DNA of 64,000 nt, from the NCBI GenBank assembly GCA_977862235.1, contig OZ374560.1:434001-498000 (forward strand), given 5' to 3'. The notes beneath the pieces are model-generated. The model saw nothing but the letters and a program-made list of their open reading frames with translations. It searched no databases and was not told the DNA's origin. The position numbers and the translations under genes were made by a program. The stretch comes from Dudresnaya verticillata. Lineage: Eukaryota. This document shows positions 16,507-56,741 of the stretch, one piece after another; position 1 is the stretch's first letter; each line of letters begins with the position of its first letter.

Positions 16507-16510
16507 AACT

Positions 16511-17836: not shown

Positions 17837-18678
17837 TGTGGTATAGACGCTATCCGTGAAACGACTCCGTGGTCTACGTGAAAATAATCGAGAAATACGA
17901 ATTTCGAAATGACTCCGTGAATGTGCACGCTACGATGACAAACGTATTACAGTGCGCATACTGTGCGCGCGCCACGATGGCATTCGCAATACAGCACGCA
18001 TGCGATACGAAATCGCTGACACCTCCGTACGAATCCCGAGCCGACTTCGTGATCGGGCGCGCCACGATGGCATTCGTATTACAGTGCGCGCCCGATACGA
18101 AATCGCTGACACCTTCTTGACTTTCCCGTTGTTTCCCGCGCGTAACCGCACCGGGCCCACGAGACACGCGCACCTCCGTATGCATCGCTGGCGCACTTCG
18201 CAACCGCCACCATACGTGAGGCGACCGTTCGATGGAACCGAGGCCGTTACGAATCATTCGAGTACGAACCGTCTCCCGGATTGACGCGCATTCGTGCGCA
18301 CGTAGTACTACTTAGCCAGTCGTCTGGGACAACCTCCGAGGGTTTCCGGTAAGCGACTAGCGCCCGGACCTCGGAGTCTTCGGTAAACGCCTGTTTCTTC
18401 GAGTTCGGTGTCTTCGTCTTCGTGACCGCGGATACAGTCGAGCCTCGCTTTCGATAGCCCCGCGCACCCGGATTCATCCCCGGTGATCGATCGCTCGAGT
18501 TCTCCCTTCCGCACACGAATACGTTGACACCGTGGTCCTTCGTGTTGGTCGCTCCGCTCTACCACGCTACCACCCCTTTCCGTTTCTCCGTTAGGCTACG
18601 ATGCCACTCGTTAGGCTCCGAGGCCATTCCTTACAGTGCGAGACTTTCCCGCGTCACCGTGGACTTCGTTTTACCACA
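17837..18678 (+). mobile_element. Solo LTR E1 (842 bp, Gypsy-type)
   Basis: TGTGGTA...TACCACA ends; TSD TTATT at 17832-17836 and 18679-18683; imperfect tandem repeats in U3; homologous to 41909-42752. Confidence 0.92.
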
Positions 18679-19134
18679 TTATTCTTGAACTGCATTAGTA
18701 GTTTGGCCAGACTAACCTCATTATTTTCCGCATCGATGGTGACCCTCCCTATCAACGGCCGCATGTTGGTCTTGCCCAAACTGGCATCCCAAACGCCACT
18801 TTTCTTAAATCCTGCAATTATTGTTGGAGCAATAAGCGCCTTAGAGTAGGTATTATGTATGCATGCGCCTACATCGAAGGCATTCAAGACTCGCTTGACA
18901 CGTGCAGCTTGGTTCCGCTCTTGCTGTAAAAAGGATTTGTACACTCCGAAAACAGTGACATCTAAGGGCTAAAGGGCATTGGAGGTGTGTGACGGCAGAG
19001 GAATAACCCCAATACAATTGCTTCGGAATAAAGAAAGAAACTCATACTGAATTTGAGGCCCGTACCCGTCCAACAGGAACATTAGTTGCTGATGGTTTTC
19101 GCGTAGCTTGTGTGTCTCTAGCACGAAGCCCTTT
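18679..19134 (-). pseudogene. pogo/Fot1-type transposase 1, central DDE_1 segment
   Basis: FLLDGYGPQ...LPSHTSNAL*PLDVTVF...GFKKSGVW, the typical pogo P.HTSH.LQPLD motif with Q changed to stop. Confidence 0.9.
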
Positions 19135-19858
19135 TGTGGTGCAATTCACCGGTGCTCATTTGCCTCAAATCGCGGCCTCCCCGCCAGCAATGCACCTGGG
19201 GGCTGCCCCTGTAAGGCGCCCGGCCTGTAAGTCCTGCGCGCGGGTGGCAACGGGTGGCGGATTATGGTGGCGGATCTTCGCTAGTGTACGCTCTGTCAGC
19301 CACCCTTAATTTTTGTTAATTTTAGTTAATCCCTTTCCGCTGTCACAAATCTCCATATGGCACGCTCCCTTCCTCACTTCATTTGCGGCGCACCCGCGTG
19401 TACGTAGTATATTAGAGCTAGGGGCGCGCCCTCATTCAGTAAACAAGCCAAGATCGGGCTCTACGACACACACCTCCCTACCCTGGACCGACACCATCGT
19501 CGTCAGGAGGGACTCCAGTGCATGCGTACCCCTTCTTCATCATACAGAACCCTGCTTTCCCCTTTTCCTTTTGCTTTTCCACTATTTTAGGGTTCCTCCC
19601 TTTTTCTTTCGTCTCGTGGCGCTTTAAAGTCGCGCTACGGGGCTACTCCCCATGCTCTACCACACCACCCCCTACTACCGCTACCCGCGGGTCCTGAACG
19701 CCCGAGGTGTGTCCTCTGTTGTTGTTTTCAGCAGTGAATTTGCACCACATTTGGTCTCCCGACCTAGAAGGTCGGAAATTCCGATTGGCTACGTTTCTAC
19801 GCTACGGAACTACCATTCTTCACATTTTACTTTCTACATACATCGCATAATTTCTGCC

Positions 19859-22527
19859 ATGCCACTCCGTCGACAGCCGTCGTCGGCAAGGTCCGCCCCA
19901 TCGCAGCCTGGAGCTGCTCTGGTTACGCGAGCTCGTGCGCAGGCATGTCCTGCGGTCCAAGCCGCCTTTTCGGCAATGCCCAATGAGGGGGTTCCTCGTG
20001 TACCTCCCTCGGTGGAGGTAGTACCTCCTGACCCAGCCGGGGCTCTCCCGACTGGCCAGGTCCAAGGCGGGCAGCCAGCATCTCCGCCTTCGCTGCCCAT
20101 TTCACCATCGCCTATTTCGGCATCACTTCCGCCTATTCGGGAATGGGGTGTCATCCCAAGTCATTCGGGATACACCCGTCACCACGCGGATATCCGCTCT
20201 GCCGTCTGGCCTGAACAACGTACATGGCCACCGCAGAGGAACTTCTCACATCGTTATCCGCCCCCTGCGGCGTGTCTCTCCCCACCCATGCGAGGGTCCG
20301 AGGCAATCTCGTTATCTTCGAAAGAATCGAACTTGTGCTCAGCCACCTCATCACCGACCTTCGGGTCATCACAGTCGTCAAGCGACAATTGCAGCAGGTG
20401 CTATTCACCTTCGGAGTCGTCAACAGACTCCTCCATGAGGTCATCCTCCTGTTCATCCTTGTGGAGTTCCACATCTTCGGACCTGTCCAACCCGTGGTCC
20501 GACGAAGAAACAGAGATAATCTCGTTAGCTGGCTGCCGCCAAGGTGAGCATCTCGACGCGTACGCGACGCACCGCGCAAAACCTGAGGATTACCTCATGA
20601 CGACACAACCGGATTTCCTGGAGTACACTGGGCATGAGCTATGCGGCCAGAACCCTAAGCGGTGCGAGGCCACCATGCCCCCAGTGGGCATCAGACGGAG
20701 ATCTGCTCCACAAGCCGGGGAACGCCCCCTTGTAACTTCAAAAAATGAACTTCAACATTCTCGGTCACAACCTGCGGAAGTCGGCAGTGCCATTTAAATG
20801 GCCACTGACATTCCGGCTCATGGCAATGAGGAAATTCTCCCACCCCGTGCGCCTCGAGTCCTCACGCGGAGATTCACGAGGCTTTCCTCTGTACTGACAA
20901 GGGACTACGCCCTACGACGACCCTGGAGAAGAATTCCACAGCGTGCTAAGCGGGGAATCCGCATCATGCTTGGACGGAATGCTGCGGTCTATGCCGATTT
21001 CGGCTTATCAAAGGTGTCTGTGACACGTTCTGTCACGGTGCTAGACACTTGTTCTGACCCGAACCTTATTCGGCAGTCGGAACTACAACGGGTACTCCCC
21101 GAAAACGAAGCAACAGTGCGGTACGGTCCGCTGCTAGACTACCGAGACGAACGCGGAAAGCCGCTGAATACCTTCGGGATTACCAGCCTTCATGTGGCCA
21201 TCGGTAACGTCAATACAGAAGTTGACTTCATAGTTGTTGGAGATCTCTCCGTGCCTGCCGTATTCGGCGCTGACTTTTGTGATGAATTCGTCGAGGCCAT
21301 ATGGCCTGCCCGGAGAAGTGTCGAGTTAGCTTCCGGACCCTCCGTTCCAATAGTTCGGAGAATGCACAAACGCGTGCTTCGGGGACCGCCCCTTCCAAAC
21401 TCTCAGGAGTACTCTCCACTTCGCGGTCGCGTATTGCCTAAGATGCGAGTCACCCGTCCCGTTTGGCTGTGTCCGCAAGCGACGACCTGGGTCGAAGTGA
21501 CGACAAAGCGCCATGGTGTTCATGTGGTGATCCCACAGTCAAGTTTCCAAAAAGAGAACTCGTGCACTGTTCACGCAGGCGTTGTTTAGGTTGAACCTGA
21601 AAAACCCTTCCTGGTGCTTATCACCAATTATGGTCAACTCCCACTGAGGGTTTCTCCTCACCAAGTCATTGGCAACCTCACACCACATCCCAGTATGCGT
21701 TTATCCATATCACGTTCCCTCGCGGACCCGTTTGATGAAATGGGAATTCCCAATCATAGAGAGTTCGCCTTTCTGATGGTTCTACGCTCGACGGTTTCGA
21801 CTACCGGGGCATCATTGTGGGAAAGCCGCTCGATACTGGAAATGCGTCACACCGAACGGAGATGTCCAGGCAACAGCAGTGTGGTGTCAATCGACAATTA
21901 TTGGGACTACCAGGTAGTCCCAACCAAAACCAGAGCGATTTCGCTACTTGGTTTACTTGGGGACCATCCCAACTGGTTCCTGCTCCCGCTTCTAAAGCAG
22001 GAGCAGAAATATATATTGTGGATGGCCACGATAATTCTGACGAGGAATCCTCGAGTGACACATCATCGCGGGAATCTGCAAGCACCTGGGGACAAACCCC
22101 TTTCGCAGACTCTGAATCAGAGCAATCAAGCGGAAATTGTTCCATAGTCTCCGGAAAGCGGGGGAAAGTTCCCACTCCGCAAACTTCGATAATGCGAACG
22201 AGAATTCCCGAGGGCAAACACGTTCGCGAAGGCACTTCCCTACGGGATTGCCCGACAAGTAAAGCAGAAGTGGCTCCTCGTGTCAGACAATTGCCATTGG
22301 TGAAACCCCCTGTGCTGCTTACGCCCGTACCCGATCGAGCTCCTCGGGATCACCAAGTCAAGCTGAAAGATTGCCGAAAGCCGGCTATTCTCGGACTTGG
22401 TCGCAGAATTGCGAAGCACCGGACCGGTCTACCGATCAGGTACTGCTCTCCAGGCTCGGGGAAAGGATTGGCTGTTGCCATGGCCCCAGATAATTCTGGC
22501 CAATCATGTCCCATAATTTGGCAATAG
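19859..22527 (+). pseudogene. Element A polyprotein: Pro/Ser-rich N-terminus plus retropepsin-like protease, with stops at 20797 and 21589 and a frameshift
   Basis: TVLDTCSDPNLI...VDFIVVGDLSVPAVFGADFC; collinear with the open ORF of element B. Confidence 0.8.
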
Positions 22528-23238
22528 TCACCCTGAGCCCCGGCAGTGCACCACCGTGCGCCCCAACGACGTGAAGTCTTATTTCGACTAAGTCCGAAAC
22601 GGGCTACACGAAAAAGGGATATCCGTAGATGCTGCGACTAACGGGCAACGGCCAGGTCAGCAAGCAACTCCACATGATAGGGAAGTACCCTGAGGAGGCC
22701 GATGCGATATACCGTTGCCTGTTTTCCAACGGCGCGCGCATGACTGGTTACTCGATAAGCTCAATCCATCGTGCCGCATGCGGCTTCATCCGCGAAACTT
22801 TATCTTCAAATGGAATCATTCCATAATTTCCATTCACCTGCCGTGTGCAGTGGAGGGGCTCATTTGGCGAACACGTCACGAATCAGCTGGTCTACGTAGG
22901 GCTACAAAGTTTATCGCTCCAGCGGAAACCCGCAGTCAAGTAACCGCGCTTAAGCTTGAATTCAAGTCGGTTACGAAGCCAAACAAAATGTGCACATGTC
23001 ATGACACGCATGGCTTGCAGCAGGGGCGTTCTCCACGCATATCGCACTCGGGTTCGGTCAATAATACGCTGACCGTGTTCCAGAGGTACCAGCTGACTTG
23101 TTCAGCGGCGATGGAGAATTGCGGGATACCGCTCGAGATGGATCCACAGTCGACTGCTGCTGTGCGGCTGTCCATTACGGCCAATCTGCACACGGAGTAG
23201 TTGTGAATCGGCTACTCCTCCTTGTTGGGCAGGTCAAT

Positions 23239-23421
23239 GAGAAAGTGGTGGACCACGAGTACGCCAATACAGAGCTTCTGTTTGAAGTCAAATGGCACGG
23301 GTATCTGTCGTCTCATACATGGGAACCCATACAACATCTACCAAGGAGTCAAATAATCTCCTTCTGCAAACGGAAACACCCTGGCGTTCCGGCTACGATA
23401 GGAAAGGCGATGGTGGGCTAG
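23239..23421 (+). pseudogene. Isolated chromodomain (chromovirus integrase C-terminus) in element A
   Basis: EKVVDHEY...LLFEVKWHGY..SHTWEPIQHL fits the chromodomain pattern Y.VE.I..H...Y.VKW.GY...TWEP..L. Confidence 0.85.
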
Positions 23422-25609
23422 CGCCAAAACGGGACGCATGCAGGCAGCTGCTAAGTCCCAAATGAAGTGGACATACCACGTTGAAGAGTCGGGTTCAGGA
23501 GTCGATGCCACAGTAGACACCGCGCACACAATGGGAGTCCTGTACGCCACGGTGTAGAATCTCATTGGTCAGGCACGATAATAATTATCGCAGCACCAAT
23601 CAGACACACCCTACGCGCACCCACTCACCCTAGCGGTTGGCCGCAATTGATCACCTTCGTCTCTCTCGAAGTCGAATACGGCTAAGTCAACAAAGGCAAG
23701 CATGCCCAAAACGGAATTCCGTAATGACTACCCCGAGCCGTCAACGGCCTTGAGCATCCGTTCCCCATGAAGTGGGGAACGCCTTCGCACAGGTCGCATA
23801 CGAAAAGTGGATTCCCACATCGCAGAACGTTCGCGTCAAAACCGACGCGACGCTCCCTATCCCTCTATGTGCGGTGTCCCACAGCACTCCCTTTACGTCA
23901 GACCATGGAGGAACACCCCTACAAAGGCCACAGCAAACCGCTGTTGTCGCCTCCGAGTCGTCTACGGCTGAATCTACAAAGGCAATTATGCCTAAAACAG
24001 AATTCCGTAATCGCTAAGCTGAGCCATCGATGGCCTTTCGTACACCCAGCGGTAGGGGAATGCCCCCACACACGCTGCGCGTGCCGCCACATCGTTTAAA
24101 GAATGGTATCCAACACGACAGGGCGTCCGCGACCAAGCCAATCGGCATCAATCGGTATCGATTGGCATCGATATCGCGCGGCATTCCGCTCCTCTAGACG
24201 ACGCCTCGTCACACTCCGTCGAATTCCACTAGGCGTTGGCGGACCCACTTGGGCTCGCTCTACCACTCGACTGCGCGGGGAAACGCTGACGTTGGTGGTT
24301 TAGCGCAGAAGCACTTCTTCTGCAGATACCTGCTGAGGCACAATTGGCGTGGCCAGATAGCAAAAAGAAGCCGGTGCCACAGTGCGGACAGCCTCTGTCA
24401 ATTACGTACTGTACGCCATACTTCAGACTGCGATTGGGTGCCGTTTGAACTAATTTTAATTTTAGCCAATCAGATGCTGGAACTTAAGGAGCTGCTACCC
24501 TGGGTGATGTCGAGCTCGGCATAAGTCGCTTCACCGACACAAAGTCGATTTTAGACTAAGTGGCTGACTCGGTATGCGGAAAACGGATATCCGTAGCCCT
24601 TCCCTTAAGCTGGCAACGTGCAGATCCGCGACCACCCCGACACGATGGGGAAGTCCCCTGAGGAAGCCGATACGGCGTATCGCCGACGGTTTCCCAATGG
24701 CGCGCGCTTTTCAGCGCCTGCTCAAATGCAGTTCCGGACTTACCCGTCAAATTGGAAATCGATGCAGTTGAACCCCCTGCACTACAAGCCGAAATGGAAT
24801 CATCCCATTACACCCCCTTCAACCACCTCGGAATTGGGGGACCCCGTTGGACGAAATCGTCATGCCTTTGAGGTACCCCTTTTGGGCACCCTATCCAGGA
24901 AAACCCCGTTTGTATACTGCTCAGGAGCTCCTGTTCGCCCCTACTCCCCGTTTTGGCACGATATCCGCGCTTGGGAATTTCCCAACAACTCTACAAACGA
25001 GAATTCTCGTTGTTCGGGGTAGTGGCAGCCCGTTTTGCAAGTCTTCGACGTCGTCCTTAACAGACGTGGAGTTTTACGGGTTTGCCCCGATAGGCCCATG
25101 CTGGTCCAGACGGCCCTGACGCCCCACTGCCAAGACGAAGTCGCCACGAAAAAGAAACCGTCATCGAACTAAGTAGTGTATCTACAATACGCTTCCCGGG
25201 ATTCCGGTTCTACGCCCAAACACCTTCGTGTGTAGATTTCTACCTACGAACAATTGCAGAATGTGTACCGCCATAAGGACGTTGAAGCTATTCGGGCGAC
25301 GCTGGAAATGTTGTATTCAACTCTGTTTAAGTATGGTGTACGCGCCTTGAGCTGCTGCATTTTTATGGCCGTGAAATGGGGAATACCCCAATGCATTTGA
25401 CCGCGGACGCGATTTCGCAACAACTGCAATGCGGAATTGCCGCCTTTTCCGTACCGCGCCCGGTTCGGCATCGGGAAAATCGAGTATTGGGGAGAGCCCC
25501 ATGCTTAAGTCCATTCGTGGGCTTCCACTTTTGCACCTGCCATTCTGCGGTGACATCCGCTTGTTCGCCCGCACCTGCATTTTCCGTATTCGGCTGTTTT
25601 CTGTTTTAT

Positions 25610-25834
25610 GTCTTGTGTAGACCGTGTTTATACAGATGAAACAAAGTTCCACCAAAATAGCGAGGGTGGCCAGGGAGCTGGCACTGCACGATGTGTACGA
25701 ATTTCCTGATCCAATCACGTGGATCGCGCCGTTTGCTTCCAGCGCCGGTTAGAATTTTTGGCGCGAACACAAGTCTACTTACGTTCGCCGATGCCGAAGA
25801 AGCGAAGCATTCCCGGCATGCCTCTCTCTTTCCA
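25610..25834 (+). repeat. DIRS direct repeat A1
   Basis: GTCTTGTGTAGACCGTG...GCCTCTCTCT repeated at 29694-29915. Confidence 0.9.
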
Positions 25835-25910
25835 GAGAGGCCCCAAACCTTTGGCGGTAGGCACATTCAGAGCGGTCAAAAGTTACTAGGCCGAAACAAT
25901 ATCAACAAAC

Positions 25911-26585
25911 ATGGAGATAAGCAACAACCAGAAGCTCGTCGAAGATTTCCTGGCCAAGGCGAAGCTGGTCAACAAGGTCAAGACTCTCGCAGAGGCTGGC
26001 GTCGACACCAAGTGGGTCCGCGCCTACGGTTAGATCGCCCGGCGCTGCAGGGACGACAAGGACTTTGGCGTCACTTCGTATCCCTACGAGCAGGGGGCGG
26101 GTGTCGCGGCGTTTATTGGTGGCTTCTTCGAGCACCGTGACTGGCCTGTACGTCGCCATATGGAGAAACACTCTAGTCTGAGGGTGATCTGCGAGTACGA
26201 AGCGAACTACACTAATGCCGCAGGTTACTGGATGGCCTTTCACCAGGCAGCCATCGACCTTCGCCACGAGTGTTTCAACAAGACGGAAGTCGACGACGCG
26301 AATGTCTTCGACGTCTGGTCAATCGTCGCGATACGCTACGGTCTACGGGTTGTGGGTCTGCGCACGCAGTTCTACAAGATGTCTGCAAGGGACCCAACCC
26401 AACCCAAGATGACACTTCCCGTTCTGGAGCAGAGGAATGAAGTCGCCCCTGCTGATGATCTGACCGAGACCATGGGTAAGCTCGATACCCATATGACGAC
26501 TCAACGGATGAAGGCGGTAGCTACCCTGAACGCCAGCAACGCAACGAAGCTAGCTGGGAAAGGTGGCGCCGCCGGGGATAATTAG
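25911..26585 (+). pseudogene. DIRS ORF1 (gag-like), with one stop and one frameshift
   Basis: MEISNNQKLVEDFLAKAKLV...* then EKHSSLRVICEYEANY...; positioned between A1 and RT. The function is assigned by position only. Confidence 0.55.
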
Positions 26586-29626: not shown

Positions 29627-29693
29627 CCCGGCCGTCGGTGCACAAGCGTCCCGCAGACGTCTGTCCGCTGTTGCGGTTGAGGTTGGGAGTTTC

Positions 29694-29915
29694 GTCTTGT
29701 GTAGACCGTGTTTATACAGATGAAACAAAGTTCTACCAAAATAGCGAGGGTGGCCAGGGAGCTGGCACTGCACGATGTGTACGAATTTCCTGATCCAATC
29801 ACGTGGATCGCGCCGTTTGCTTCCAGCGCCGGTTCGAAATTTTGGCGCGCACAAGTCTACTTAAGTTCGCCGGTGCCGACGAAGCGAAGCATTCCCGGTA
29901 TGCCTCTCTCTTCCA
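29694..29915 (+). repeat. DIRS direct repeat A2
   Basis: Close copy of 25610-25834. Confidence 0.9.
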
Positions 29916-32001
29916 CACCCACCCGCCCGTTTTCATGTCTCTCTCTTTGTTGTTTTGGCAGGGTACGGAAGTTCATTTCGGAGGTGGTGATTGGGCAAAA
30001 GTTGATTGACGTTAGCAGGGAGTCTGGAAGTGGTGCGAATGCAAGTGCAAAAGCGACTGAGGGAAAACCCCCTCAGTAGTGCGCATCGCGTACTAACCCC
30101 GCGGGGTGTTTTGCTCAACCAAGTGCGCGTCGTTGACGGAAGACCAAGCACGTTCCACCCCCGAAGTACGCTCTGGTTCCGAGCTATCGGGAGGGGCGCT
30201 TCACCGCCAACCCTTTCGGGTCGGCAGCCCGGTCTGTGGTTTCAATTTGGGGCTATTTATACCAGACCCCCCGGGCGCGAAATTACAGTGCACTTGTTCG
30301 CGAAGGTTCGAATCCCACGGGAGCACAAAGGGATCCAACTTATTTTCTTAGTTATTGTTGATATGTATGGGCTGCTGAAAAGCCCACGCCCGTAGCTATA
30401 GGTTCTTTGGGCGGGGGTGCAGCCTAAATATCCTGCCGGACCATGCGCAGGCCGCGCGTCTAGCAGGTCACCTTTAGACCGTAAATGAATTTGTTTCACC
30501 CCGCGTTGGGGCCCCGGATGCTCCGGTCGACTACAGAAGATGCCGGTATTCGGCTGTGAAGGCAGTCACAGGCGCCACCGTCGAAGTGGCGGTGGCTCTG
30601 AATACTCTGGGACTTGTCGGTTTTCGACTTCATGCTCTTTTGAAGTGCACAATGCTGCACAGGGGAAAGGTCTCATACACGGCCCATCTATGAAACAAAT
30701 GGTACAGGGCCGCAAGAGGCCGAAAAAGGGGCCGCAACAACCCGGTTAGCCGAAAGGTTACCACGATTACTACAATTTACTTACAGCGGTCCGGACCGGG
30801 CGTTCCACTGGAGGATAAATCGGGGCAAGAGAAGGACCAATCGGTCCCCCTCGTGGACCGAATTAAGGAAACTGCTTGCGCATGGAAAGGAAGGTTTCGT
30901 AAGCACGAGTGAAACGAGAGGTTGTGCGGTACAAGCCGTCTACCAGCCGACACCATCTGCTGATGCCGACAATAAGTTTAGAAGTCGTATTGCGACATGA
31001 GAAAATGGCACTATTGCAGTATGTGCCTGCTGAGGGACACAAGGCAATATTAAGTGGTATACACACCTGGTGTTGCGCATGTGCATCCAAGCACACGATG
31101 CAAAGACGGGGAACCCCCACCCCCCTGAAATACCGAGGGTCGCGCCAGTTGCTGCAAAGCTCCGAAGGCGTATTGCGGTTCATCCGCTTGCAGTACTGAC
31201 ATCGCCATGATGACCAACGCCGGAAGCAGACAATCTGCAAATTCGCGAACCCGGCCGGGGAAGTCCCCCATTTTCGAAAGGGCCCCTGTTTACTCATAGG
31301 GGCGAGCTCAGACAGCAGAAATCCGCATTCAAGATGGAGTTAGTGGGTTGGGCTCGCAGAGGCTCACCTCTTAACGGGGGGGAGATGTGGTGCAATTCAC
31401 CGGTTCTCATTTGCCTCAAATCGCGGCCTCCCCGCAATGCACTTGGGGACTGCCCCTGTAAGGCGCCCGGCCTGTAAGTCCTGCGCGCGGGTGGCAACGG
31501 GTGGCAGATTATGGTGGCGGATCTTCGCTACTGTACGCACTGTCAGCCACCCTTAATTTTAGTTAATTTTAGTTAATCCCTTTCCGCGTGTCACGAATCT
31601 CCAAATGGCACGCTTCCTTCCTCACTTCATTTGCGGCGCATCCGCGTGTACGTAGTATATTAGAGCTAGGGGCGCGCCCTCATTCAGTAAACAAGCCAAG
31701 CTCGGGCTCTACGACACACACCTCCCTACCCTTGACCGACACCTTTGTCTTCAGGAGGGACTCCAGTGCGTGCGTACCCCTTCTTCATCATACAGAACCC
31801 TTTTCCCCCTTTTCCTTTTGCTTTTCCACTATTTTAGGGTTCCTCCGTTTTTCTTTCATCTCGTGGCGTTTTACAGTCGCGCTACGGGGCTACTCCCCAC
31901 GCTCTACCACACCACCCCCTACTACCGCTACCCGCGGGTCCCGAACGCCCGAGGTGTGTCCTCTGTTGTTGTTTTCAGCAGTGGATTTGCACCACACCTT
32001 T

Positions 32002-33553: not shown

Positions 33554-36500
33554 CCTGAATAGAACCATACGGTGGGTTTGGGTTTTTGCCCTTTTTCTGG
33601 AATTCACAGACTCACCGTATCTTTTTCCCCTTTCTGGCGCTCTACTAGCCTTGTCTCCGCACGACGGAAGCTCTGCGCGAGCGGGGTAGCGCCGCCCTTC
33701 CTTTTTACCCTTTTCCCTAACCGTTCAACTCTTAATATGGTTTTTTGCCGTGCTTTAGCACCACCTGCCTCGCGATTCCCCTTATCTGTGTGGTGCAAAT
33801 CCACTGCTGAAAACAACAACGGAGGACACACCTCGGGCGTTCGGGACCCGCGGGTAGCGGTAGTAGGGGGTAGTGTGGTAGAGCGTGGGGAGTAGCCCCG
33901 TAGCGTGACTGTAAAACGCCACGAGATGAAAGAAAAACGGAGGAACCCTAAAATAGCGGGAAAGCAAAGGAAAAAGGGGAAAACAGGGTTCTGTATGATG
34001 AAGAAGGGGTACGCACGCACTGGAGTCCCTCCTGACGACGAAGGTGTCGGTCAAGGGTAGGGAGGTGTGTGTCGTAGAGCCCGAGCTTGGCTTGTTTACT
34101 GAATGAGGGCGCGCCCCTAGCTCTAATATACTATGTACATGCGGGTGCGCCGCAAATGAAGTGGGGAAGGGAGCGTGCCATTTGGAGATTCGTGACACGC
34201 GAAAAGGGATTAACTAAAATTAACTAAAATTAAGGGTGGCTGACAGTGCGTATAGTAGCGAAGATCCGCCACCATAATCTGCCACCCGTTGCCGCCGGCG
34301 CGCAGGACTTACAGGCCGGGCGCCTTACAGGGGCAGTCCCCAAGTGCATTGCTGGCGGGGAGTCCGCGATTTGAGGTAAATGAGCACCGGTGAATTGCAC
34401 CACATCTCCCCCCCGTTAAGAGGTGAGCCCCTGCGAGCCCAAGCCACTAAATCCATCTTGAATGCGGATTTCCGCTGTCTGAGCTCGCCCCTATGAGTAA
34501 ACAGGGGGCCCTTTCGAAAATGGGGGACTTCCCCGGCCGGGTTCGCGAATTTGCAGATTGTCTGCTTCCGGCGTTGGTCATCATGGCGATGTCAGTACTG
34601 CAAGCGGATGAACCGCAATACGCCTTCGGAGCTTAGGAGCAACTGGCGCGACCCTCGGTATTTCAGGGGGTGGGGGTTCCCGGCTTTGCGTCGATACACA
34701 ATCGTGTGCTTGGATGCAAATGCGCAACACCATGTGGGTATACCACTTAATATTGCCTCGTGTCCCTCAGCAGGCACATACTGCAATGGTGCCATTTTCT
34801 CATGTCGCAATACGACTTCTAAACTTATTGTCGGCATCACCAGATGGTGTCGGCTGGTAGACGGCTTGTACCGCACAACCGCTCGTTGCACTCGTGCTTA
34901 GGAAACCTTCCTTTCCATGCGCAAGCAGTTTCCTCAAATCGGTCCACGAGGGGGACCGATTGGTCCTTATCTTCCTCCGATGGGTCCTCCAGTGGACCGC
35001 CCGGTCCGGACCGCTGTAAGTATATTACAGTAACCGTGGTAACCTTTCGGCTACTCAGGGGTTGTTGCGGCCCCTTTTCCGGTCTTTTGCGGCCCTGTAC
35101 CATTTGTGTCATAGATCGGCCGTGTATGAGACATTTCCTCTGTGCAGCATTGCGCACTGCAAACGAGCATGAAGTCGAAATCCGACAAGTCCCAGAGCAT
35201 TCAGAGTCACCGCCACTTCGGCGTTGGCGCCTGTGACTGCCTTCACAGCCGAAGACCGGCATAATCTGCTATCGACCGGAGCATCCCGGGTTCCAATGCG
35301 GGGATAAAGCAGCTTTCTGCAGAAAACAGCCGAATACGGCAAATGCAGGTGCGGACGAACGAGCGGATGTCACCGCAGGATGGCAGCTGCAAAAGTGGAA
35401 ACCCACGAATAGACTTCAGCATGGGGCGTTCCCCAATGCTCGGTTTCCCCGATGGCGAACCGGGCGCGGTGCGGAAATGGCGGATATTCCGCATTGCAGT
35501 CGTTGCGAAATGGCGTCCGCGGTCAAATGCATTGAGGTAGTCCCCATTTCACGTCCATAAAAGGGCAGCGGCTCAAGGCGCGTACGCCAGACTTAAACAC
35601 AGTTGAATACAACATTTCCAGCGTCGCCCGAATAGCTTCGGCTTCCTTATGGCGGTACACATTCTGCAATTGTTCGTAAGTAGAAATCTACACACGAAGG
35701 TGCTTTGGGCGTAGGACCGGGATCCCGGGAAACGTATTGTAGACACACTACTTAGTTAGATGACGGCTTCTTTTTCGTGGCGACTTCGTCTTGGCAGTGG
35801 GGCGTCAGGGCCGTCTGGACCAATATGGGCCTATCGGGGCAAACCCGTAAAACTCCACGTCTGTCGAGGACGACGTCGAAGACTTGCAAAACGGGCTGCC
35901 TCTACGCCGAACAACGAGAATTCTCGTTTGTAGAGATGCTGGGAAATTCCCAAGCGCGGATATGGTGCCAAAACGGGGAGTAGGGGCGAACAGGAGCTCC
36001 TGAGCAGTATACAAACGGGGTTTTCCTGGATAAGGTGCCCAAAAGGGGTACCTCAAAAGCATGACGATTTCGTCCAACGGGGGCCCCCAATTCCAAGGTG
36101 GTTGAAGGGGGTGTAATTGGGATTGTTCCATTTAGGCTTGTAGGGCAGGGGGGTTCAACTGCATAGATTTCTGATTTGACGGGTAAGTCCCGAACTGCAC
36201 TTGAGCAGGTGCAGAAAAGCGCACGCCATTGCGAAACCATCGGCGATACGCCATATCGGCTTCCTCAGGGGACTTCCCCATCCTGTCGGGGTGGTCGCGG
36301 ATCTGGACGTTGCCAGCTTACGGGAAGGGCTACGGATATCCGTTTTCCGCATACCGAGTCAGGCACTTAGTCGAAAATCGACTTTGTGTCGGTGAAGCGA
36401 CTTATGCCGAGCTCGACATCACCCAGGGTAGCAGTCCCTTAAATTCCAGCATCTGATTGGCTAAAATTAAAATTTGTTCAAACGGCACCCAATCGCAGTC

Positions 36501-37519: not shown

Positions 37520-37678
37520 GCCGCTTCATGTTATGATAGGATGCGTTTTGACTCCGCGGCAAGTTGTGAATGGGTTTCCATGTCTGCGGCGCGAACGGAC
37601 ATCCGTACCACTTGATCTCAAACAGAAGTTCTGTATCGAAATATCCGTGGCTTACCACTTTTTCAATGACATATTCGT
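37520..37678 (-). pseudogene. Isolated chromodomain remnant in element B
   Basis: Minus strand translates EYVIEKVVSHGYFDTELLFEIKWYG...TW, then frameshifts. Confidence 0.75.
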
Positions 37679-38442: not shown

Positions 38443-41166
38443 TCAAGGGTGACTGTTGCCAAATTCTGGGATCTGATTGGCCCCAATGTTTGGGGCCAAA
38501 GCAACAGCCAATCCTTGCACATAGCATGGCGTACAGTTCATGAAACGCCGACCTGTCCGGTACTTCGCGATGCTGCGACCGAGTCCGAGAATAGCCGACT
38601 TTCGGCAACCATTTTTCTTGACTTGGTCGTCGCGAGGAACGCGTTCGGGTACGGGACTATGGAGCACAGGGGATTCCCCCAGAGGCAATTGCCTAACACG
38701 AGGAGCCACTTCTACGTCAAGTAGGAGCTCATCTACAGATGCCAATTGCACACTTGTGGCTGCAAACTTTGTCGGGTAATCCCGTGGGGAAGTACCTTCG
38801 CGAACGCGTTTGTCCTCGGGAACTCCCGCTTGTATTATCGACGTTTGCGAAGTAGGGACTTTTCCCCACTTGTCGGAGACTGCGGAACAATTTCCGCTTG
38901 ATTGCTCTGATTCAGAGTCTGCGAAAGGGGCTTGTCCCCAGGTGCTTGCGAATTTCCGCGATGATGTGTTACTCGAGGATGCCTCCTCATAATTATCGTG
39001 GCCACCCACAATATTTAATTCTGCTGCTGCTTGAGAAGCGGGAGCAGGAATCAGTTGGGGTGGTCCCCAACTATACAAAGTAGCGAAATCGCTCTGGTTT
39101 TGGTTGGGACTATCTGGCAGTCCCAATAATTGTGGATTGACACCACACTGCCGTTGCCTGAACACCTCTGTCCGGCGTGGCGAATTCCCAGTATCAAGTG
39201 GCTTTCCCACAATGATGCTCCGGTAGTCAAAACCGTCGAGTGTGGAACCGTCAGAAAGGCGAACTCTAACATTGGGAATTCCCATTTCGTCGAACGGGTC
39301 CGCGAGGGAACTAGATATGGACAAACGCATGCTGGGATGTGGCACGAGTTTGCCAATGCCTTGCTGAGGAGAAACCCTCTGTGGTAGCTGACCGAAATTG
39401 GTGACAAGCACCAGGAAGGGTTTGTCAGGTTCAACCTGAACAACGCCCGCGTGAACAGCGCACGAGTGCTCTTTCTGGAAACTTGACTGTGGGATTACCA
39501 CTTGAATACCATGGCGCTTTTTCATCACTTCGACCCAGGTCGTCGCCTGCGGTAGCAGCCAAACGGGACGGGTGACTCGCATCTTAGGCGATACGCGACC
39601 GCGAAGTGGAGAGTACTCCTGAGAGTTTGGAAGGGGCGGTCCCCGAAGCACGCGTTTGTGCATTCTCCGAACTATTGGAACGGAGAGTCCGGAAGCTAAC
39701 TCGACACTTCTCCGGGCCGGCCATATGGCCTCGACGAACTCGTCACAAAACTCTGCGCCGAATACGGCAGGTACGGAGAGATCTCCAACAACGATGAAGT
39801 CAACATCCGTATGGATGTCACCGATGACAACATGAAGGCTGGTAATCCCGAAGGTATTCAGCGGCTTTCCGCGTTCGTCTCGGTAGTCTAGCAGCGGACC
39901 GTACCGCACTGTTGCTTCGTTTTCGGGGAGTACCCGTTGTAGTTCCGACTGCCGAATAAGGTTCGGGTCAGAAAAAGTGTCTAGCACCGTGACAGAACGT
40001 GTCACAGACACCTTTGATAAGCCGAAATCGGCATAGACCGCAGCATTCCGTCCACGCATGATGCGTATTCCCCGCTTAGCACGATGTGGAAGTCTTCTCC
40101 AGGGTCGTCGTAGGGCATAGTCCGTTGTCAGTACAGAGGAATGGCTCGTGATTCTCCGTGTGAGGACTCGAGGGGCGCGGTATGGGAGGATTTCCTCATA
40201 GCGATGAGTCGGGATGTCAGTTGCCGTTTCAATGGCAGTGCCGACTTCCGCAGGTTGTGACCGAGAATGTTGATGTTCAACGTGCGAAGGTACAAGGGGT
40301 CTTTCCCCGGTTTCTGGAGCAGGTCTCCATCTGATGCCGACTGTACGAATGTTGGCGTCACACTTTTTAGGGCGCTGGCTACATAGCTGATGCCCCGTGT
40401 ACTCCGGGAAATCCGGTTGAGTCGTCATGACGAGATCCTCTTCGTGTTCACGAAGTGCATCGAACATGTGGAGATACCCACTGTTATAATGGTTTGTAAC
40501 CGGGATCGTCTCGGTCTCGCTGTCAGACCAAGGGTTGCTCAGTTCCGACGATGTGGAACTCCACAGGGAAGAGCAAGAGGATGTTCTCATGGAGGAGAAG
40601 GTCGATGACTCCGAAGGTGCAAAGCACCTGCTGCAATTGTCGCTTGACGACTGTGGCGACCTGAAGGTCCGTGATGAGGTGGCTGAGCACCAGGTCGAGT
40701 CTTCCGAAGGTAACGAGACTGTCTCAGACCCTCGTATGGATGGAGAAAGACACGCCGCAGGGGGCGGATCAGGATATGAGGAGTTCCTCTGTGGTGGCCA
40801 TGTACATTGTTCGGACCAGACGGCAGAGCGGATATCCGCGTGGTGACGGGTGTATCCCGAATGACTTGGGATGACACCCCATTCCCGAATAGGCGGAAGT
40901 GATGCCGAAATCGGCGATGGTGGAATGGGCAGCGAAGGCGGAGATGCCGGCTGCCTGCCTTGGACCTGGCCAGTCGGGAGAGCCCCGGCTGGGTCAGGAG
41001 GTACTATCTCCACCGAGGGTGGTACACGAGGAACACCCCCATTGGGCATTGCCGAAAAGGCGGCTTGGACCGCAGGACATGCCTGCGCACGAGCTCGCGT
41101 AACCAGAGCAGCTCCAGGCTGCGATGGGGCGGACCTTGCCGACGACGGCTGTCGACGGAGTGGCAT
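38443..41166 (-). CDS. Element B long ORF (about 907 aa from ATG 41166): Pro/Ser-rich region, retropepsin-like domain, beta-rich post-protease domain; no RT/RH/IN
   Basis: Uninterrupted frame; TVLDTFSDPNLI...PAVFGAEFC; no YxDD or integrase motifs seen anywhere in the element. Confidence 0.75.
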   Translation of the reverse strand: MPLRRQPSSARSAPSQPGAALVTRARAQACPAVQAAFSAMPNGGVPRVPPSVEIVPPDPAGALPTGQVQGRQPASPPSLPIPPSPISASLPPIREWGVIPSHSGYTRHHADIRSAVWSEQCTWPPQRNSSYPDPPPAACLSPSIRGSETVSLPSEDSTWCSATSSRTFRSPQSSSDNCSRCFAPSESSTFSSMRTSSCSSLWSSTSSELSNPWSDSETETIPVTNHYNSGYLHMFDALREHEEDLVMTTQPDFPEYTGHQLCSQRPKKCDANIRTVGIRWRPAPETGERPLVPSHVEHQHSRSQPAEVGTAIETATDIPTHRYEEILPYRAPRVLTRRITSHSSVLTTDYALRRPWRRLPHRAKRGIRIMRGRNAAVYADFGLSKVSVTRSVTVLDTFSDPNLIRQSELQRVLPENEATVRYGPLLDYRDERGKPLNTFGITSLHVVIGDIHTDVDFIVVGDLSVPAVFGAEFCDEFVEAIWPARRSVELASGLSVPIVRRMHKRVLRGPPLPNSQEYSPLRGRVSPKMRVTRPVWLLPQATTWVEVMKKRHGIQVVIPQSSFQKEHSCAVHAGVVQVEPDKPFLVLVTNFGQLPQRVSPQQGIGKLVPHPSMRLSISSSLADPFDEMGIPNVRVRLSDGSTLDGFDYRSIIVGKPLDTGNSPRRTEVFRQRQCGVNPQLLGLPDSPNQNQSDFATLYSWGPPQLIPAPASQAAAELNIVGGHDNYEEASSSNTSSRKFASTWGQAPFADSESEQSSGNCSAVSDKWGKVPTSQTSIIQAGVPEDKRVREGTSPRDYPTKFAATSVQLASVDELLLDVEVAPRVRQLPLGESPVLHSPVPERVPRDDQVKKNGCRKSAILGLGRSIAKYRTGRRFMNCTPCYVQGLAVALAPNIGANQIPEFGNSHP

Positions 41167-41908
41167 GGCAGAAATTCTGCGATGTATGTGGAAGGTAGAA
41201 TGTGAAGAACGGTAGTTCCGTAGCGTACATAACGTAGCCAATCGGAATTTCCGAACTTCTAGGTCGGGAGACCAAATGTGGTGCAAATCCACTGCTGAAA
41301 ACAACAACGGAGGACACACCTCGGGCGTTCGGGACCCGCGGGTAGCGGTAGTAGGGGGTAGTGTGGTAGAGCGTGGGGAGTAGCCCCGTAGCGTGACTGT
41401 AAAACGCCACGAGACGAAAGAAAAAGGGAGGAACCCTAAAATAGCGGGAAGGCAAAGGAAAAAGGAGAAAACAGGGTTCTGTATGATGAAGAAGGGGTAC
41501 GCACGCACTGGAGTCCCTCCTGACGACGAAGGTGTCGGTCAAGGGTAGGGAGGTGTGTGTCGTAGAGCCCGAGCGTGGCTTGTTTACTGAATGAGGGCGC
41601 GCCCCTAGCTCTAATATACTATGTACATGCGGGTGCGCCGCAAATGAAGTGGGGAAGGGAGCGTGCCATTTGGAGATTCGTGACACGCGAAAAGGGATTA
41701 ACTAAAATTAACTAAAATTAAGGGTGGCTGACAGTGCGTACAGTAGCGAAGATCCGCCACCATAATCTGCCACCCGTTGCCGCCGGCGCGCAGGACTTAC
41801 AGGCCGGGCGCCTTACAGGGGCAGTCCCCAAGGGCATTGCTGGCGGGGAGTCCGCGATTTGAGGTAAATGAGCACCGGTGAATTGCACCACAATCTGCCC
41901 TTCAATAT

Positions 41909-42752
41909 TGAGGTATAACGAAGTCCACGGTGACGCGGGGAAGTCTCGCACTGTAAGTAATGGCCTCGGAGCCTAACCAATGGCCTCGTAGCCTAACAGA
42001 GAAACGGAAAGGGGTGGTAGCGTGGTAGAGCGGAGCGACCAACACGAAGGACCACGGTGTCAACGTATTCGTGTGCGGAAGGGAGAACTCGAGCGATCGA
42101 TCACCGGGGATGACTCCGGGTGCACGGGGCTATCGAAAGCGAGGCTCGACCGTATCCGCGGTCACGAAGACGAAGACACCGAACTCGAAGAAACAGGCGT
42201 TTACCGAAGACTCCGAGGTCCGGGCGCTAGTCGCTTACCGGAAACCCTCGGAGGTTGTCCCAGACGACTGGCTAAGTAATACTACGTGAGCACTAACACA
42301 CGTCAACGCGGGAGACGGTTCGTACTCGAATGATTCGTAACGGACTCGGTGCCAACGAACGGTCGTCTCACGTATGGTGGCGGTTACGAAGTGCGCCAGT
42401 GATGGATACGGAGGTGCACGCGTGTCGTGGACCACGGTACCGTTACGCGCGGGAAACAACGGGAAGATCACGAAGGTGTCAGCGATTTCGTATCGGGTGC
42501 GCACTGTAATGCGAATGCCATCGTGGCGCGCGCGATCACGAAGTCCACTCGGAATTCGTCCGGAGGTGTCAGCGATTTCGTATCGCATGCGTGCTGTAAT
42601 GCGAATGCCATCGTGGCACGTGCAGAGTATGCGCACTGTAATACGTTTCCCATCGTGGCGTGCGCATTCACGGAGTCACTTCGAAATTCGTATTTCTCGA
42701 TTATTTTTCACGTAGACCACGGAGTCGTTTTGCGCAAAGCGTCTATACCACA
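41909..42752 (-). mobile_element. Solo LTR E2 (844 bp)
   Basis: Inverted homolog of 17837-18678; TSD AATAT at 41904-41908 and 42753-42757. Confidence 0.92.
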
Positions 42753-45063: not shown

Positions 45064-47350
45064 TGTGGTGCAAGGGGGGGTGAGCCCCTTCTTCGCTGAA
45101 AGCGGAGCGACAAATACGTCGACCGACGGAGAAACCGCCACCGGTGCTCACCACCGCCGTTAGCGCACGAACACGTCATCGACGGCTCACTGGGGCGCAC
45201 GCACACGTTGCGCACCGCGCGTCATGCGGGCACTGTACGGTGATGGGCCGATATGGCGCCCCGGGGCACTGTAACACGGATCTAGATGGGATCCGGATCC
45301 GGTATCCGGATTGGCTATCTGGATCGCCTGCGCTGTAATGTAAGCGCCTGTAAGGCTGCGAGTGTCTCATTGCTGGCCCGGATCCGGATGGGGATCGGGA
45401 TCGGACAAGTATTGGATTAGATGAAGGGCGCACGCTCTACAGTACGCGCGCGCACGGCTGTATGGCGCACGCGTCCACGTGTGTGTGTAAGCGCCCACGC
45501 AGGGGGTTCCGCGGCAACCTGTCAGGCGCGCGGCTTCATACGATGGGTGATCTGTCAGACGCGCCTCGGGACGACACGTGTCCCAAGTTCCCGCGCTACG
45601 CACCCGCACCGCCGCCGCCGCACCGTCGTGCTATACTTAGGTAAGCCGTCCCAGACGTAGCAGTAAACGCCCGGGCAAGCCGGCCTTGGTCCAGACTTCC
45701 CCATTCCGCACACGCGTACCCTCCGCTACCGCTGCCTACGGCCTAATCGTCTACCTCCCGTGCTTCCACGATCAACCACCGTCGTTGACGTGTTTCCTTT
45801 TTGTTCTCTTTTGTTCTTCCTTTCCGCCTCGGACGTTTACAGTCTGCCCAAGGCGTGTCAACCGCTCTACCACAAGCCGCCCTAGGCGAGGTTACTCACC
45901 GCCACGGGCGTCATTACCCTCCAAGCCCCGAACTGCTCGGCGGTGTTTCGTCCAGGACGTTGGCACCACATCTGGTCTCCCGACCTAGAATTTTGCTACG
46001 TTTCAACGAGTGCCTCCGTCGTGTGACGTCCGACTTTCCGTCTTCAAACGTTTGTCGCCAATCGTCCGCGACTTTCAAGCAACTCTATGACTGCATTATG
46101 GCCTCACGACCGCCGCCGTCGCGAGGCCCAAGTCCAAGAAGACCGTCATCGCCGCCTGGGAGTGTCCCCGCGTCAGAATGGTCGCTACAGCGGATGAAAA
46201 CAAGATCAGGGCGCCTCGTGAGCCCGCAGATCGCGTTGGCCTTCCCGACACGACCCCCGGGCCACGGCCACGCAGGCTCCCACGCGTCGCTTAAAGGAGG
46301 AGAGTTACCTCCCCCGCCGACGCGCATTCCTGTTCCCGTCCTCACCTCAGTCACCGAGGGATCGGCCCTCCGCACCTACCGCTCCTACGTTGACTCGGCT
46401 GATACTGTACAAGCCGAGCAACAGCGCGTCGTAGACGGAAGCCAAGCCGACATCGTCGAGGAACAACCGGAACTTCCGAACCAACCAACCATCCCCGTCA
46501 GCAACGATCAGGGGCACTCCGCGGAGCGCAACTTCGCTGACGACCCATTGATACCTGGGGCATGCTGCCCCACTCCCCACGGCAGTGCCGGTTACTCACC
46601 GGCTAAGCCGAAGTCGCCAAGCCAAAGGGCTGAAGGAACGCCCAACCGGTCAACCCCCGAAATCCATCCGCCAACGGCGTCACCCTCGGCCGTCCACGTG
46701 AGTAACTTAACGATACCACGCGAACAGATCCGAGAGGTATGTGTCCTGGAAGACGATGCTTTGCTCGCTAGGATCGCCGGTTTGTTGGACGACAGTGTCG
46801 GAGGAATCGCAAGTCGTCTACAGACGTTGGAAGAAGATCGAGACGGCGCCCTACAAGGGCTTCGCTCCGACCTTGACCGTCTATTGACGAACCAACATGC
46901 CCATGGCTAGGTTACCCAACCACCGCCGGCAGCAACGGTCCATTCTCACCCTGAGCTTAGCTCACTCGATCGCTTTCAGCGACTGGCGACTCGCTTAGAG
47001 CGTCTTGACACCGCCAAGTGGCGCAACGGTCCACCGTCGGGCGAGGAGAGCTCGTGCGAAGACCGTCATAGACGCAATGATCTGAAGAGACGCCGCCGCA
47101 AGCTGCGTCATAGACGGAAGAAGAACCGTCATCGACATGGGGATTCATCCTCGTCCTCTTCGGACTCATCAAGTGACGGAGAGTCATCCGACTCTTCGTC
47201 TGAAGACGACGACTTCCCAGCTCTTGGCAGTTCCGCAAGACCTCGCGGAAAGCGGTTCAAGGGGTTGAAGGAACTACGCCCTTCCAACCCCCTTTTCGAT
47301 CAGCTGCTATCGTATAGGACTTATCGTCTCCAAGATGTAGGGCAGAAACG
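45064..47350 (+). mobile_element. Gypsy-type element C, 5' part only (LTR 45064-45970, PBS 45973-45990, gag-like ORF from 46098)
   Basis: TGTGGTGC...GCACCACA; the same 18-nt PBS as A and B; ORF MASRPPPS... reads past one TAG (46910) to ...LLSYRTYRLQD. No 3' LTR in the window, and the right boundary is approximate. Confidence 0.85.
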
Positions 47351-51213: not shown

Positions 51214-51233
51214 GAGCAATACTGGTATTGCTC
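51214..51233. promoter_or_regulatory. Palindromic site 1
   Basis: GAGCAATAC-TG-GTATTGCTC, 9-bp arms. Confidence 0.5.
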
Positions 51234-51453: not shown

Positions 51454-51469
51454 CAATACTGGTATTGCT
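51454..51469. promoter_or_regulatory. Palindromic site 2 (same core)
   Basis: CAATAC-TG-GTATTG-CT, 16 nt identical to site 1. Confidence 0.5.
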
Positions 51470-54788: not shown

Positions 54789-56741
54789 GGCCGAAACCCC
54801 ACTTAGAGGCACGACGGGCGCAGTGGTGGACTCAACCACGCCCGCGGCCTTGCCCTCCGCGTTGAAAGAGAACAGGAGACGGAGTTGGGGCCGTCGACGG
54901 CCCCGCGCCAGCAGAATCGCGCGGCACGAAGGGTGCCGCCGCTGCGGGAACTTTCCCCGACCCGGAGGGCGTTGGCGACCTCGACCGATGTAGGTCGAGC
55001 ACCATTGCCGCCGCTGGCACCGCGGAGCGCGACGGCTGCTGCGCGGATGCCCTTCCTCGCGTCGACGCGAGTTGAGTGCTCGCATGAGCCGTCGGCCATG
55101 CGCAAGGCGGGCCAGTCGGCTGAAAGACACGAGCCACCGCTACTGGGCGCGGGGCGGCAAAGGCAGACCACTCGGGTGCTTCACTTTCGTGCCCTGCGCC
55201 GCGGCAAGGGCCACCGCCTCTGACCAGACGTCAGCGTCGGGTGTTGGGGTGGGGTTGGCATCGACGCCACCCGCCCCGGCAGCAGAAGCCCGCACAGGAG
55301 CGCGCCCGGCATCGCTTAGCGCACCCGTCGATGGGGGTGCTCCTTCTGGCGCAACCGTCGAAGGTTGCGCCTCTGCCGCAGCGACAGTCGAAGGTCGCTC
55401 CGTGGCTGGCGCGGCCGTCGAAGGCCGCGCCTCCCCACCTGCCGGCGCCTTTGGCACCGGCTCTGCAGGACCACCCACTGCGACTGACTCGGTCGACGTG
55501 GTGGGGTGGATGACCGGCGCCCCCTCGGTAGGGGCGCCGCCCACGATAGGCTCGCGTGACTCCATCGCCGCGTCGATGCTGGCGATGGGGGAAGGAAGGG
55601 GGAGCTTGAAAGCGTCGAAGCTTGGAACTTGCAGCGCTTGTCGACAAGGGGCGCAGCACGCGGGTAGTTGGCGGTCGTGCTGAGCGATGGCCAGACCGCC
55701 TCCCCCCGGAGCCGCATAGACGGCTCCCTAAATAGCCCGTCGCGGCTCAGAGCGGGCACACCTGACGTGGCATCGACGCCCGTCACCGATGGACGCCCAG
55801 AGGACGCCCGGGGGCCCGCTGGCCAATCCCGGGCGCCGTCTTGGCCACCCCCCTGCTTGCACGTCGTAACCCTCGCGACCGAGGCGTTTGCGCTTGAAGC
55901 GGGGTTGTGTGGCATAGCTGTAAGACCAGCTGTGCCACACACGCGTAGCTGTAAGACCAGCTGAGCCATGTGTGCACCGCTGTGCGCACGCTGTCAGCCG
56001 GTGGCGCCGAAGCCCCGCTGAACTGTAAGGAAGTGCGCTGTGGCGCCCGCGCGTGCACGTGTACGCGTGTGACACTGAAACTCCCATGTAATTTCTACGT
56101 CTATTTTGTGTAGTGTACAGCACTGTCTAGTGTAAGCGGCGGTCGAACGCCCTGTTGTCCCGCGCGCCGTGCGCACGCACTCCGGCGTAGGGCCGTTGAG
56201 TGCGTGACATGCGCGCGCGTACTCCGGCGTCGAGCCGTTGAGTACGTGTGCACCGTTTCGCCCACGCGCGCACCCGGGGTACCGTTATCCGTACGCGTCG
56301 ACGCGTGTCGGGGCGCGTCGCCGCACCTCCCGGGTTGGTGCCGCCGCAGGCCCTGTAGTATATTTAGTAGTGGCCCCTCTGGGCTTGAGTAAATAAGGCA
56401 AGCCAGCCTACGCCAGGCTTTTCCCTTTCTGCTTTGGGCTTCTTTCCCAGTCCTTCACCCTACGGCTTCCCTCTTTCCCTAGCCGCCTAGGCTTTCCTTT
56501 TCCTTTCCCTACCGTCAGCTGCGTGCCGCCCCACGACGGAGACGCAGGGATCCGGCCGCTGCCGCCCGCGTACGGTCCGCCCCGTTCGCGCTCAGGATTC
56601 GACGCCGTTGATCCGCGACCGTCGACGGCGCGCGCGGCCGACACCACCGCTCTACCACCACCATTACCACTTCGACGGGTCTGGGTGCGACTACGAGACC
56701 AGCCGCTCTAGAAGTCAGTTCGATCTGACGTCTATGCCACA
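54722..56741 (+). mobile_element. Gypsy-type element D remnant: GC-rich 3' internal region plus 3' LTR (55908-56741)
   Basis: 10-bp inverted ends TGTGGCATAG / CTATGCCACA; purine tract GAAGCGGGG before the LTR; LTR motifs shared with A, C and E; AAAGA at both 54717-54721 and 56742-56746. Confidence 0.75.

Follow-up and report, generated by a model that had tools for sequence, protein, structure and literature searches.

The DNA stretch analyzed here, hereafter the window, comprises 64,000 nucleotides (nt) of the Dudresnaya verticillata contig OZ374560.1 (assembly GCA_977862235.1, positions 434,001 to 498,000, forward strand) and is characterized by a transposon nest in the genome of a florideophyte red alga. 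Retrotransposons with long terminal repeats (LTRs), as well as solo LTRs, of four families, termed A/B, C, D, and E, were recognized in it. Their LTRs share an 11-nt word, CGCTCTACCAC (box 1), and this word and its possible role in binding the primer tRNA of the elements are the subject of this study. The elements were delimited by self-comparison of the window and inspection of their termini, which read TGTGG...CCACA throughout the families A/B, C, D, and E, with a CCTCA end in one E copy.

Element A (19135-31996, plus strand) is bounded by a 5' LTR (19135..19749) and a 3' LTR (31386..31996) sharing 94.8% identity, with the target duplication CCTTT. Element B (33789-41892, minus strand, about 8 kb) carries its 3' LTR at 33789..34404 and its 5' LTR at 41277..41892, the two being 98.6% identical, with the target duplication CAGAT. 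TG...CA LTRs, a target duplication, a primer binding site (PBS) 0-5 nt past the 5' LTR, and a purine tract before the 3' LTR are all present in A/B. Chromodomain remnants are kept in both A (23242..23400, plus strand; Pfam PF00385, E 1.9e-06) and B (Pfam), and the open frame of element B (38443..41277, minus strand) contains a protease-like region with 41% identity to P0037, a chromodomain Gypsy Pol featuring the families RVT_1, RNase H, integrase, and Chromo. A homologue search with the full frame of element B returned nothing. Since the scanned open reading frames of A and B gave no match to reverse transcriptase (RT) or integrase families, both elements are, judging from their sequences, non-autonomous derivatives of Ty3/Gypsy chromoviruses. 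The RT at 26554-28578 is part of an insertion nested inside element A (25610-29912) and not of element A itself. This insertion features direct terminal repeats of 221 nt (96%) and an RVT_1 frame, followed by a downstream frame without Pfam match, and is presumably DIRS-like.

Family C is represented by a 5' LTR (45064..45970, plus strand), family D by an LTR at 55908..56741 (plus strand) that is likely a 3' LTR and shows neither PBS nor target duplication, and family E by two solo LTRs with 5-bp target duplications, located at 17837..18678 (plus strand, TGTGG...CCACA, duplication TTATT) and 41909..42752 (minus strand, duplication ATATT). The gap between element B and the latter measures 16 bp (41893-41908). 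Only LTRs and a broken gag-like region of C, D, and E are contained in the window; their TGTGG...CCACA ends, the shared word, and the PBS of C suggest that these families are akin to Ty3/Gypsy. LTR-bearing relatives of the elements were not found, and P0037 gave no relative in IMG/VR.

Box 1 and the primer binding site

Within the window, box 1 occurs at nine sites with at most one mismatch, compared to 0.83 expected, and nine sites were reached in 0 of 100 shuffles. All eight LTR copies of the four families carry the word, one of them with a mismatch. It resides in family E at 18555..18565 (plus strand) and 42022-42032 (minus strand), in element A at 19653..19663 (5' LTR, plus strand, C>T mismatch) and 31900..31910 (3' LTR, plus strand), in element B at 41363-41373 (5' LTR, minus strand) and 33875-33885 (3' LTR, minus strand), in family C at 45863 (plus strand), and in family D at 56648..56658 (plus strand). 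From the end of box 1 to the LTR end, the distance is 83 nt in D, 86 nt in A/B, 97 nt in C, and 113 nt in E. Box 1 is the sole 11-mer common to all four families, common 12-mers amount to zero, and none of the local alignment scores of the six family pairs exceeded the maximum of 100 shuffles. Because the word has been kept where the rest of the LTR no longer aligns, we infer that the motif is real and under selection.

The first-pass annotation of this DNA had listed the word at 18555, 19653 (one mismatch), 31900, 45863, and 56648, 83-113 nt before the LTR end, in families otherwise hard to align; all five sites, the poor alignability, and the antisense contexts quoted for E, C, and D were recovered, the three minus-strand LTR copies (33875, 41363, and 42022) and an internal copy at 24256 in element A having been missed. 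The internal copy was rejected as a functional site: it is not conserved in element B, where the homologous site (36660) has two mismatches, and was taken as chance or local structure. Between 24256 and 24305, the internal 11-mer has a 9/11 complement 29 nt downstream, corresponding to a local hairpin, which element B has in a less perfect form.

In predicted folds of A/B, box 1 is mostly unpaired (0.65-0.88, compared to 0.46-0.53 for the leaders). A conserved internal partner of the CYC type was not detected in A and B, the best complement (8/11 in B and 9/11 in A) not rising above shuffles.

An 18-nt PBS was identified at three sites in the window, each 2 nt past the 5' LTR of A (19752..19769, plus strand; complement of tRNA-Tyr nt 59-76), B (41257..41274, minus strand), or C (45973..45990, plus strand), confirming the common PBS reported earlier for these three. 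For D and E, no PBS is present within the window. The corresponding tRNA-Tyr 3' end reads TTCTAGGTCGGGAGA. A pattern composed of the PBS complement and a T-loop returned one locus from metagenome contigs (L001), an intron-bearing tRNA-Tyr(GTA) gene whose product pairs with the PBS of A, B, and C at 18 of 18 positions once CCA is added. The PBS is hence tRNA-Tyr-like, as had been proposed, and this pairing indicates that the primer of A, B, and C is tRNA-Tyr. Atypical introns are described for the tRNAs of Chondrus (PMC13578239). In a tree built from those 34 of 46 best matches that measure 150-400 amino acids, the Maf gene adjoining L001 falls, at moderate support (92/67), into a seven-row clade with a Gracilaria protein; the source of L001 is probably, but not firmly, a red alga. 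Further matches to the PBS pattern, two in IMG/VR and six in GTDB, have no box 1 upstream and appear to be due to chance.

Since the PBS forms one full block of 18 nt, the label 'bipartite' that had been given to primer binding does not hold, and box 1 would represent an additional contact rather than part of a bipartite PBS of the Ty1/Ty3 type (a PBS of 8-10 nt plus T-arm segments). A read-through relic of the primer was rejected as the source of box 1, as it would sit 3' of the PBS and not 5'. Directly 3' of the PBS, a further island, GCTACGTTTC.ACG, is common to A/B and C (19788-19801 and 45995-46008), representing a candidate packaging or structure signal.

Proposed pairing of the boxes with tRNA-Tyr and alternative explanations

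No tRNA genes were detected in the window by ARAGORN or Rfam. Complementarity was gauged on three surrogate tRNA-Tyr (L001, L035, and that of C. merolae), none of which is the host's own. L035 is the one tRNA-Tyr among 15 IMG/VR loci fetched by a pattern for tRNA nt 1-16 only, and its neighbours are giant-virus-like. Its acceptor stem is as the PBS demands, and its D-arm/anticodon stem is exactly the one complemented by family C, in which box 1 extends over 45857..45872 (plus strand) and is complementary to tRNA nt 17-32 at 16 of 16 positions. In register, 12 positions pair in D, 11 in E, and 10 in A/B. These values were reached by 0 of 300 LTR shuffles in C, D, and E and by 3 of 300 in A/B. 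The LTR of a copia-like element in the window (11745-16856, minus strand), which has another PBS, achieved six positions, like its own shuffles. When only the flank was shuffled and the word kept constant, the value for C was reached by 0 of 1000 shuffles in one run and 1 of 1000 in another. Matches of 13 nt (E) and 14 nt (D) to 21 tRNA-Tyr genes picked by a D-arm pattern were not counted as support, because this selection makes them partly circular.

A second word, TTTACAGTC (box 2), which is new relative to the first-pass annotation, starts 27-30 nt before box 1 in the 3' LTR of element A (31870..31878, plus strand), both LTRs of element B (41395-41403 and 33907-33915, minus strand), and family C (45836-45844, plus strand). 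It is the complement of tRNA-Tyr nt 30-38, pairing with these positions of L001 and of L035 (one G-U) and spanning the anticodon loop completely; by complementing the anticodon, it points to Tyr without recourse to the PBS. By chance, box 2 appeared in 17-40 of 20,000 flank shuffles, and four of its seven sites on both strands of the window are the LTR sites of A, B, and C. In A/B, it forms the exact 9-nt loop of a predicted hairpin of 8-12 bp (z -3.3 and -3.2 in the 5' LTRs), for which the better fold is on the sense strand. This hairpin spans 41383-41415 in the 5' LTR of element B; in the 5' LTR of element A, a predicted 12-bp U5 hairpin (19611..19643, plus strand) exposes a one-base variant of box 2 in its loop (19623-19631). 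In C, box 2 lies partly in the loop of a predicted hairpin at 45825..45855. Compared to shuffles (n=300), the hairpin was matched by 1 in B, 5 in A, and 12 in C (weak), and its closing pair across the four A/B copies is C-G, U-G, or U-A.

With moderate confidence, we interpret box 1 as an additional site at which the element RNA docks its primer tRNA-Tyr, i.e., as extended pairing, the case appearing strongest for C and A/B and less settled for D and E. Concerning the proposal that the element RNA grips one tRNA at two sites, the 18/18 pairing of the PBS with L001, the 16/16 pairing of C with L035, and the isotype named by box 2 speak in its favour, but L001 itself pairs with box 1 at only 8 of 10 positions.

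Several observations weigh against extended pairing. Chief among them is A26 in both likely red-algal tRNA-Tyr genes (L001 and C. merolae), whereas the word needs G26. The shortfall of L001, the sole perfect PBS match, also concerns family C (13/16), and the tRNA-Tyr of C. merolae (PMC3728597 supplement, compared by eye) reaches 9/10 with another acceptor stem. Of the surrogates, only L035 carries TGGTAGAGCG at nt 17-26, and it originates from a virus record and has only 15 of 18 positions paired with the PBS. Moreover, the conserved last C of the 11-mer is unpaired with every surrogate; a host D-loop without nt 17 is therefore predicted. In A, B, D, and E, the pairing did not exceed the flank-shuffle nulls (74-459/1000; second run, 136-453/1000), and with L001 the best value was that of B (37/1000). 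D and E are devoid of box 2, and their upstream hairpins are not beyond shuffles (145/300 in D and 85/300 in E); neither is the single compensatory pair of the A/B hairpin (259/500). The 5' LTR of element A has lost one base in each box. The modifications D20, m2,2G26, and m1G37, frequent in the tRNA-Tyr of eukaryotes, would make these duplexes less stable. Among 23 non-Tyr control tRNAs, two fit the word equally well or better (Asn 11 and Ala 10 positions). In IMG/VR, the two-box pattern matched 45 sites, every one of them antisense to a tRNA-Tyr(GTA) gene, which in itself favours extended pairing; these are, however, class II phage tRNAs, in which the word is located at nt 7-19 and not in the 3' strand of the D-arm.

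Four of six copies show nothing unusual in their flank energies, which fits an alternative that we regard as unlikely but worth weighing, namely, that the word is a cis element bound by protein (in the DNA, a downstream promoter or 3'-end signal; in the RNA leader, a Gag/packaging signal), the tRNA match being secondary. The word is set among repeated CTAC/CCAC units next to pyrimidine tracts, and other islands are common as well, CGCACCCG in all four families and CACCGGTGCTCA in A/B and C; an accessible single strand past the hairpin would suit protein binding. A precedent is given by CYC5 of Ty1, a sequence complementary to the D stem that was shown to act via another partner (PMC4974528). 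Such an element leaves unexplained, however, the six extra paired bases of C and the fact that box 2 names the same isotype as the PBS, and a conserved internal partner above shuffles is lacking.

The control tRNAs bear on whether the partner is the primer at all. It had been asked whether the word is equally present in families primed by other tRNAs: the copia-like LTR lacks it, though as a single control only, and the word also fits the D-arms of the Asn and Ala controls. The tRNA-Asn L046, reading GTGGTAGAGCG, matches 11 of 11 positions including the last C, and no PBS in the window names the primers of D and E, so that the word might instead contact the D-arm of another abundant tRNA whose D-loop is short, serving packaging or the dimerization of the RNA. 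We consider this highly unlikely, given that non-Tyr controls never exceeded 11 nt in any family and that box 2 fits the GUA anticodon only.

The phage tRNAs, in turn, direct attention to the antisense strand, where TGGTAGAGCGG fits a loose RNA polymerase III A-box consensus in all four families. The word could accordingly be such an A-box, or else a remnant left by the capture of a tRNA-Tyr 5' half as in Helenus, kept for antisense transcription or TFIIIC binding. The class II phage tRNA-Tyr carry TGGTAGAGCGG at nt 8-19, followed by GACTGTAAA, and share 13 + 12 nt of identity with C, which would account for the last C of the word; the hairpin of C folds better antisense (-17.7 vs -12.5). On the other hand, a B-box at one mismatch was found in one of six LTRs, compared to 9-17% by chance, and no Rfam tRNA match at E up to 10 was obtained for three stretches covering B, C, D, and E. 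Positions that are free in an A-box are invariant in the word, the agreement of these phage tRNAs with the PBS does not exceed 6 nt, and a neutral relic would have decayed along with the rest of the LTR; we regard this explanation as improbable. As a separate observation, the phage genes in question (L056-L100) start with GGGAGAGTGGTAGAGCGG or similar and lie within tRNA clusters.

The first-pass annotation had also considered the motif as a target of 5' tRNA fragments. Halves covering nt 1-35 would include the paired region. Targeting by tRNA fragments follows a 5' seed-match rule, but complementarity ends at nt 17, leaving tRNA nt 8-16 without in-register pairing and hence without a 5' seed match; a silencing site would moreover be expected to decay and not to last in four families. 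We attach hardly any probability to this explanation.

Putative primer-template complex and comparison with known systems

Extended pairing of tRNA-Tyr, as favoured here, could proceed as follows. Both boxes would lie in U5 on the 5' leader, judging from a TATA-like site 230-290 nt upstream, with transcription presumably starting about 30 nt past it. Annealing of the PBS would remove the acceptor and T stems, opening the tRNA and freeing the weak D and anticodon arms, for which a joint energy of -6.8 kcal/mol was computed. Box 1 is predicted to pair with tRNA nt 17-26, and out to nt 32 in family C, and box 2 of A/B and C with the anticodon loop. At computed duplex energies of -16.7 kcal/mol (10 bp of box 1), -29.8 kcal/mol (16 bp in C), and -5 to -9.6 kcal/mol (box 2), the boxes would outcompete the remaining tRNA arms. 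The anticodon may first meet box 2 in the hairpin loop, and this contact may then grow into a three-way junction, yielding a pseudoknotted primer-template complex of the human immunodeficiency virus (HIV) type. Such a complex could select or hold the primer and pace the start of minus-strand synthesis, the boxes being displaced after about 90-130 nt of synthesis.

Co-folding of the box region with the tRNA, as suggested earlier, was carried out for B with L035 nt 17-38 as surrogate: all 22 tRNA bases were paired in a three-way junction (-38.2 kcal/mol), but with a segment 3 nt shorter the hairpin stayed closed, with 14 bases paired (-36.6 kcal/mol). The model thus suggests two near-equal states. 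A more far-reaching and rather unlikely version resembles a T-box leader, in which a loop with the Tyr codon (UAC) would capture the anticodon, the 11-mer would unzip the D arm, and the PBS would take the 3' end; about 40 of 76 tRNA bases would be paired, and primer choice, perhaps also the charging state, would gate reverse transcription. As for a half-tRNA priming site, box 2 is located about 115-125 nt inside the LTR and not directly past the 5' LTR, and it is a 3'-end PBS that follows the LTR.

Extended primer pairing is known in detail from a few model elements only, which are compared here. [quoted passage not shown] There, the anticodon and T arm of tRNA-Lys3 are paired close to the PBS, whereas the contacts predicted for the red-algal elements, which are Gypsy-type, involve the 3' strand of the D-arm and the anticodon arm of tRNA-Tyr, 90-130 nt upstream. 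The extended PBS of Ty1 (PMC4974528) similarly features extra boxes complementary to the D (dihydrouridine) arm, which are needed for primer packaging and initiation, but these boxes are located inside GAG and within 28 nt, 3' of a 10-nt PBS, and tRNA-iMet serves as primer. Comparable to the pairing proposed here, RNAs of Metaviridae pair with the T/D arms outside the PBS, as described for the bipartite PBS of Ty3 (PMC5371799) and the two PBSs of Drosophila Gypsy (PMC1635307); their second sites are at the RNA 3' end and bridge the ends, in contrast to the red-algal boxes, which are predicted in U5 and, provided that R is not long, would be confined to the 5' leader. The principle of extended pairing is established by the HIV-1 contacts (PMC3185550), the extended or bipartite sites of Ty1/Ty3 (PMC4974528, PMC5371799, and PMC11381356), and Gypsy (PMC1635307).

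[quoted passage not shown] Unlike Helenus/TRIMp3, the red-algal elements measure 8 kb and feature an A-box-like word with a B box not beyond chance and without an Rfam tRNA match. With chromoviruses (PMC6317226), A/B share chromodomain and protease remnants akin to the complete Gypsy Pol with chromodomain mentioned above. In green plants, the majority of chromoviruses rely on tRNA-Met or on self-priming, unlike A/B with their tRNA-Tyr primer and without RT/integrase match.

The arrangement as a whole (a full PBS, contacts to the 3' strand of the D-arm and to the anticodon arm located 5' of the PBS, tRNA-Tyr, and a red alga) was not found in the literature searched, to which Repbase, subscription papers, the PlantRNA 2.0 bioRxiv supplements, and older work could add. 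The combination of box 2 and D-arm contact 5' of a full tRNA-Tyr PBS thus appears to be a new arrangement of a known principle. If extended pairing applies, the survival of the word in LTRs that otherwise no longer align would point to long-term selection on these contacts outside the model systems and would offer a marker for one red-algal Gypsy clade; the U5 boxes should then vary together with the tRNA that the PBS specifies as primer, which is testable genome-wide.

Other features of the window

For the gene at 10358-11089, named homologues come from Chondrus crispus (cluster of the 57% match), Eucheuma (55%), and Gracilariopsis (42%), in line with a florideophyte source. The LTR of family C interrupts the frame of a DDE_1 transposase (44059-45147). 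The copia-like element encodes RVT_2, and its LTRs are 98.6% identical, with ends other than TG...CA and with AACCCTA on both flanks. Its PBS, GTTATGGGCCCAG, overlaps the start codon and resembles the half-tRNA-iMet type. Finally, an RT element of the non-LTR type (59612-63271, minus strand) has inserted into another copy of the copia family, which is decayed.

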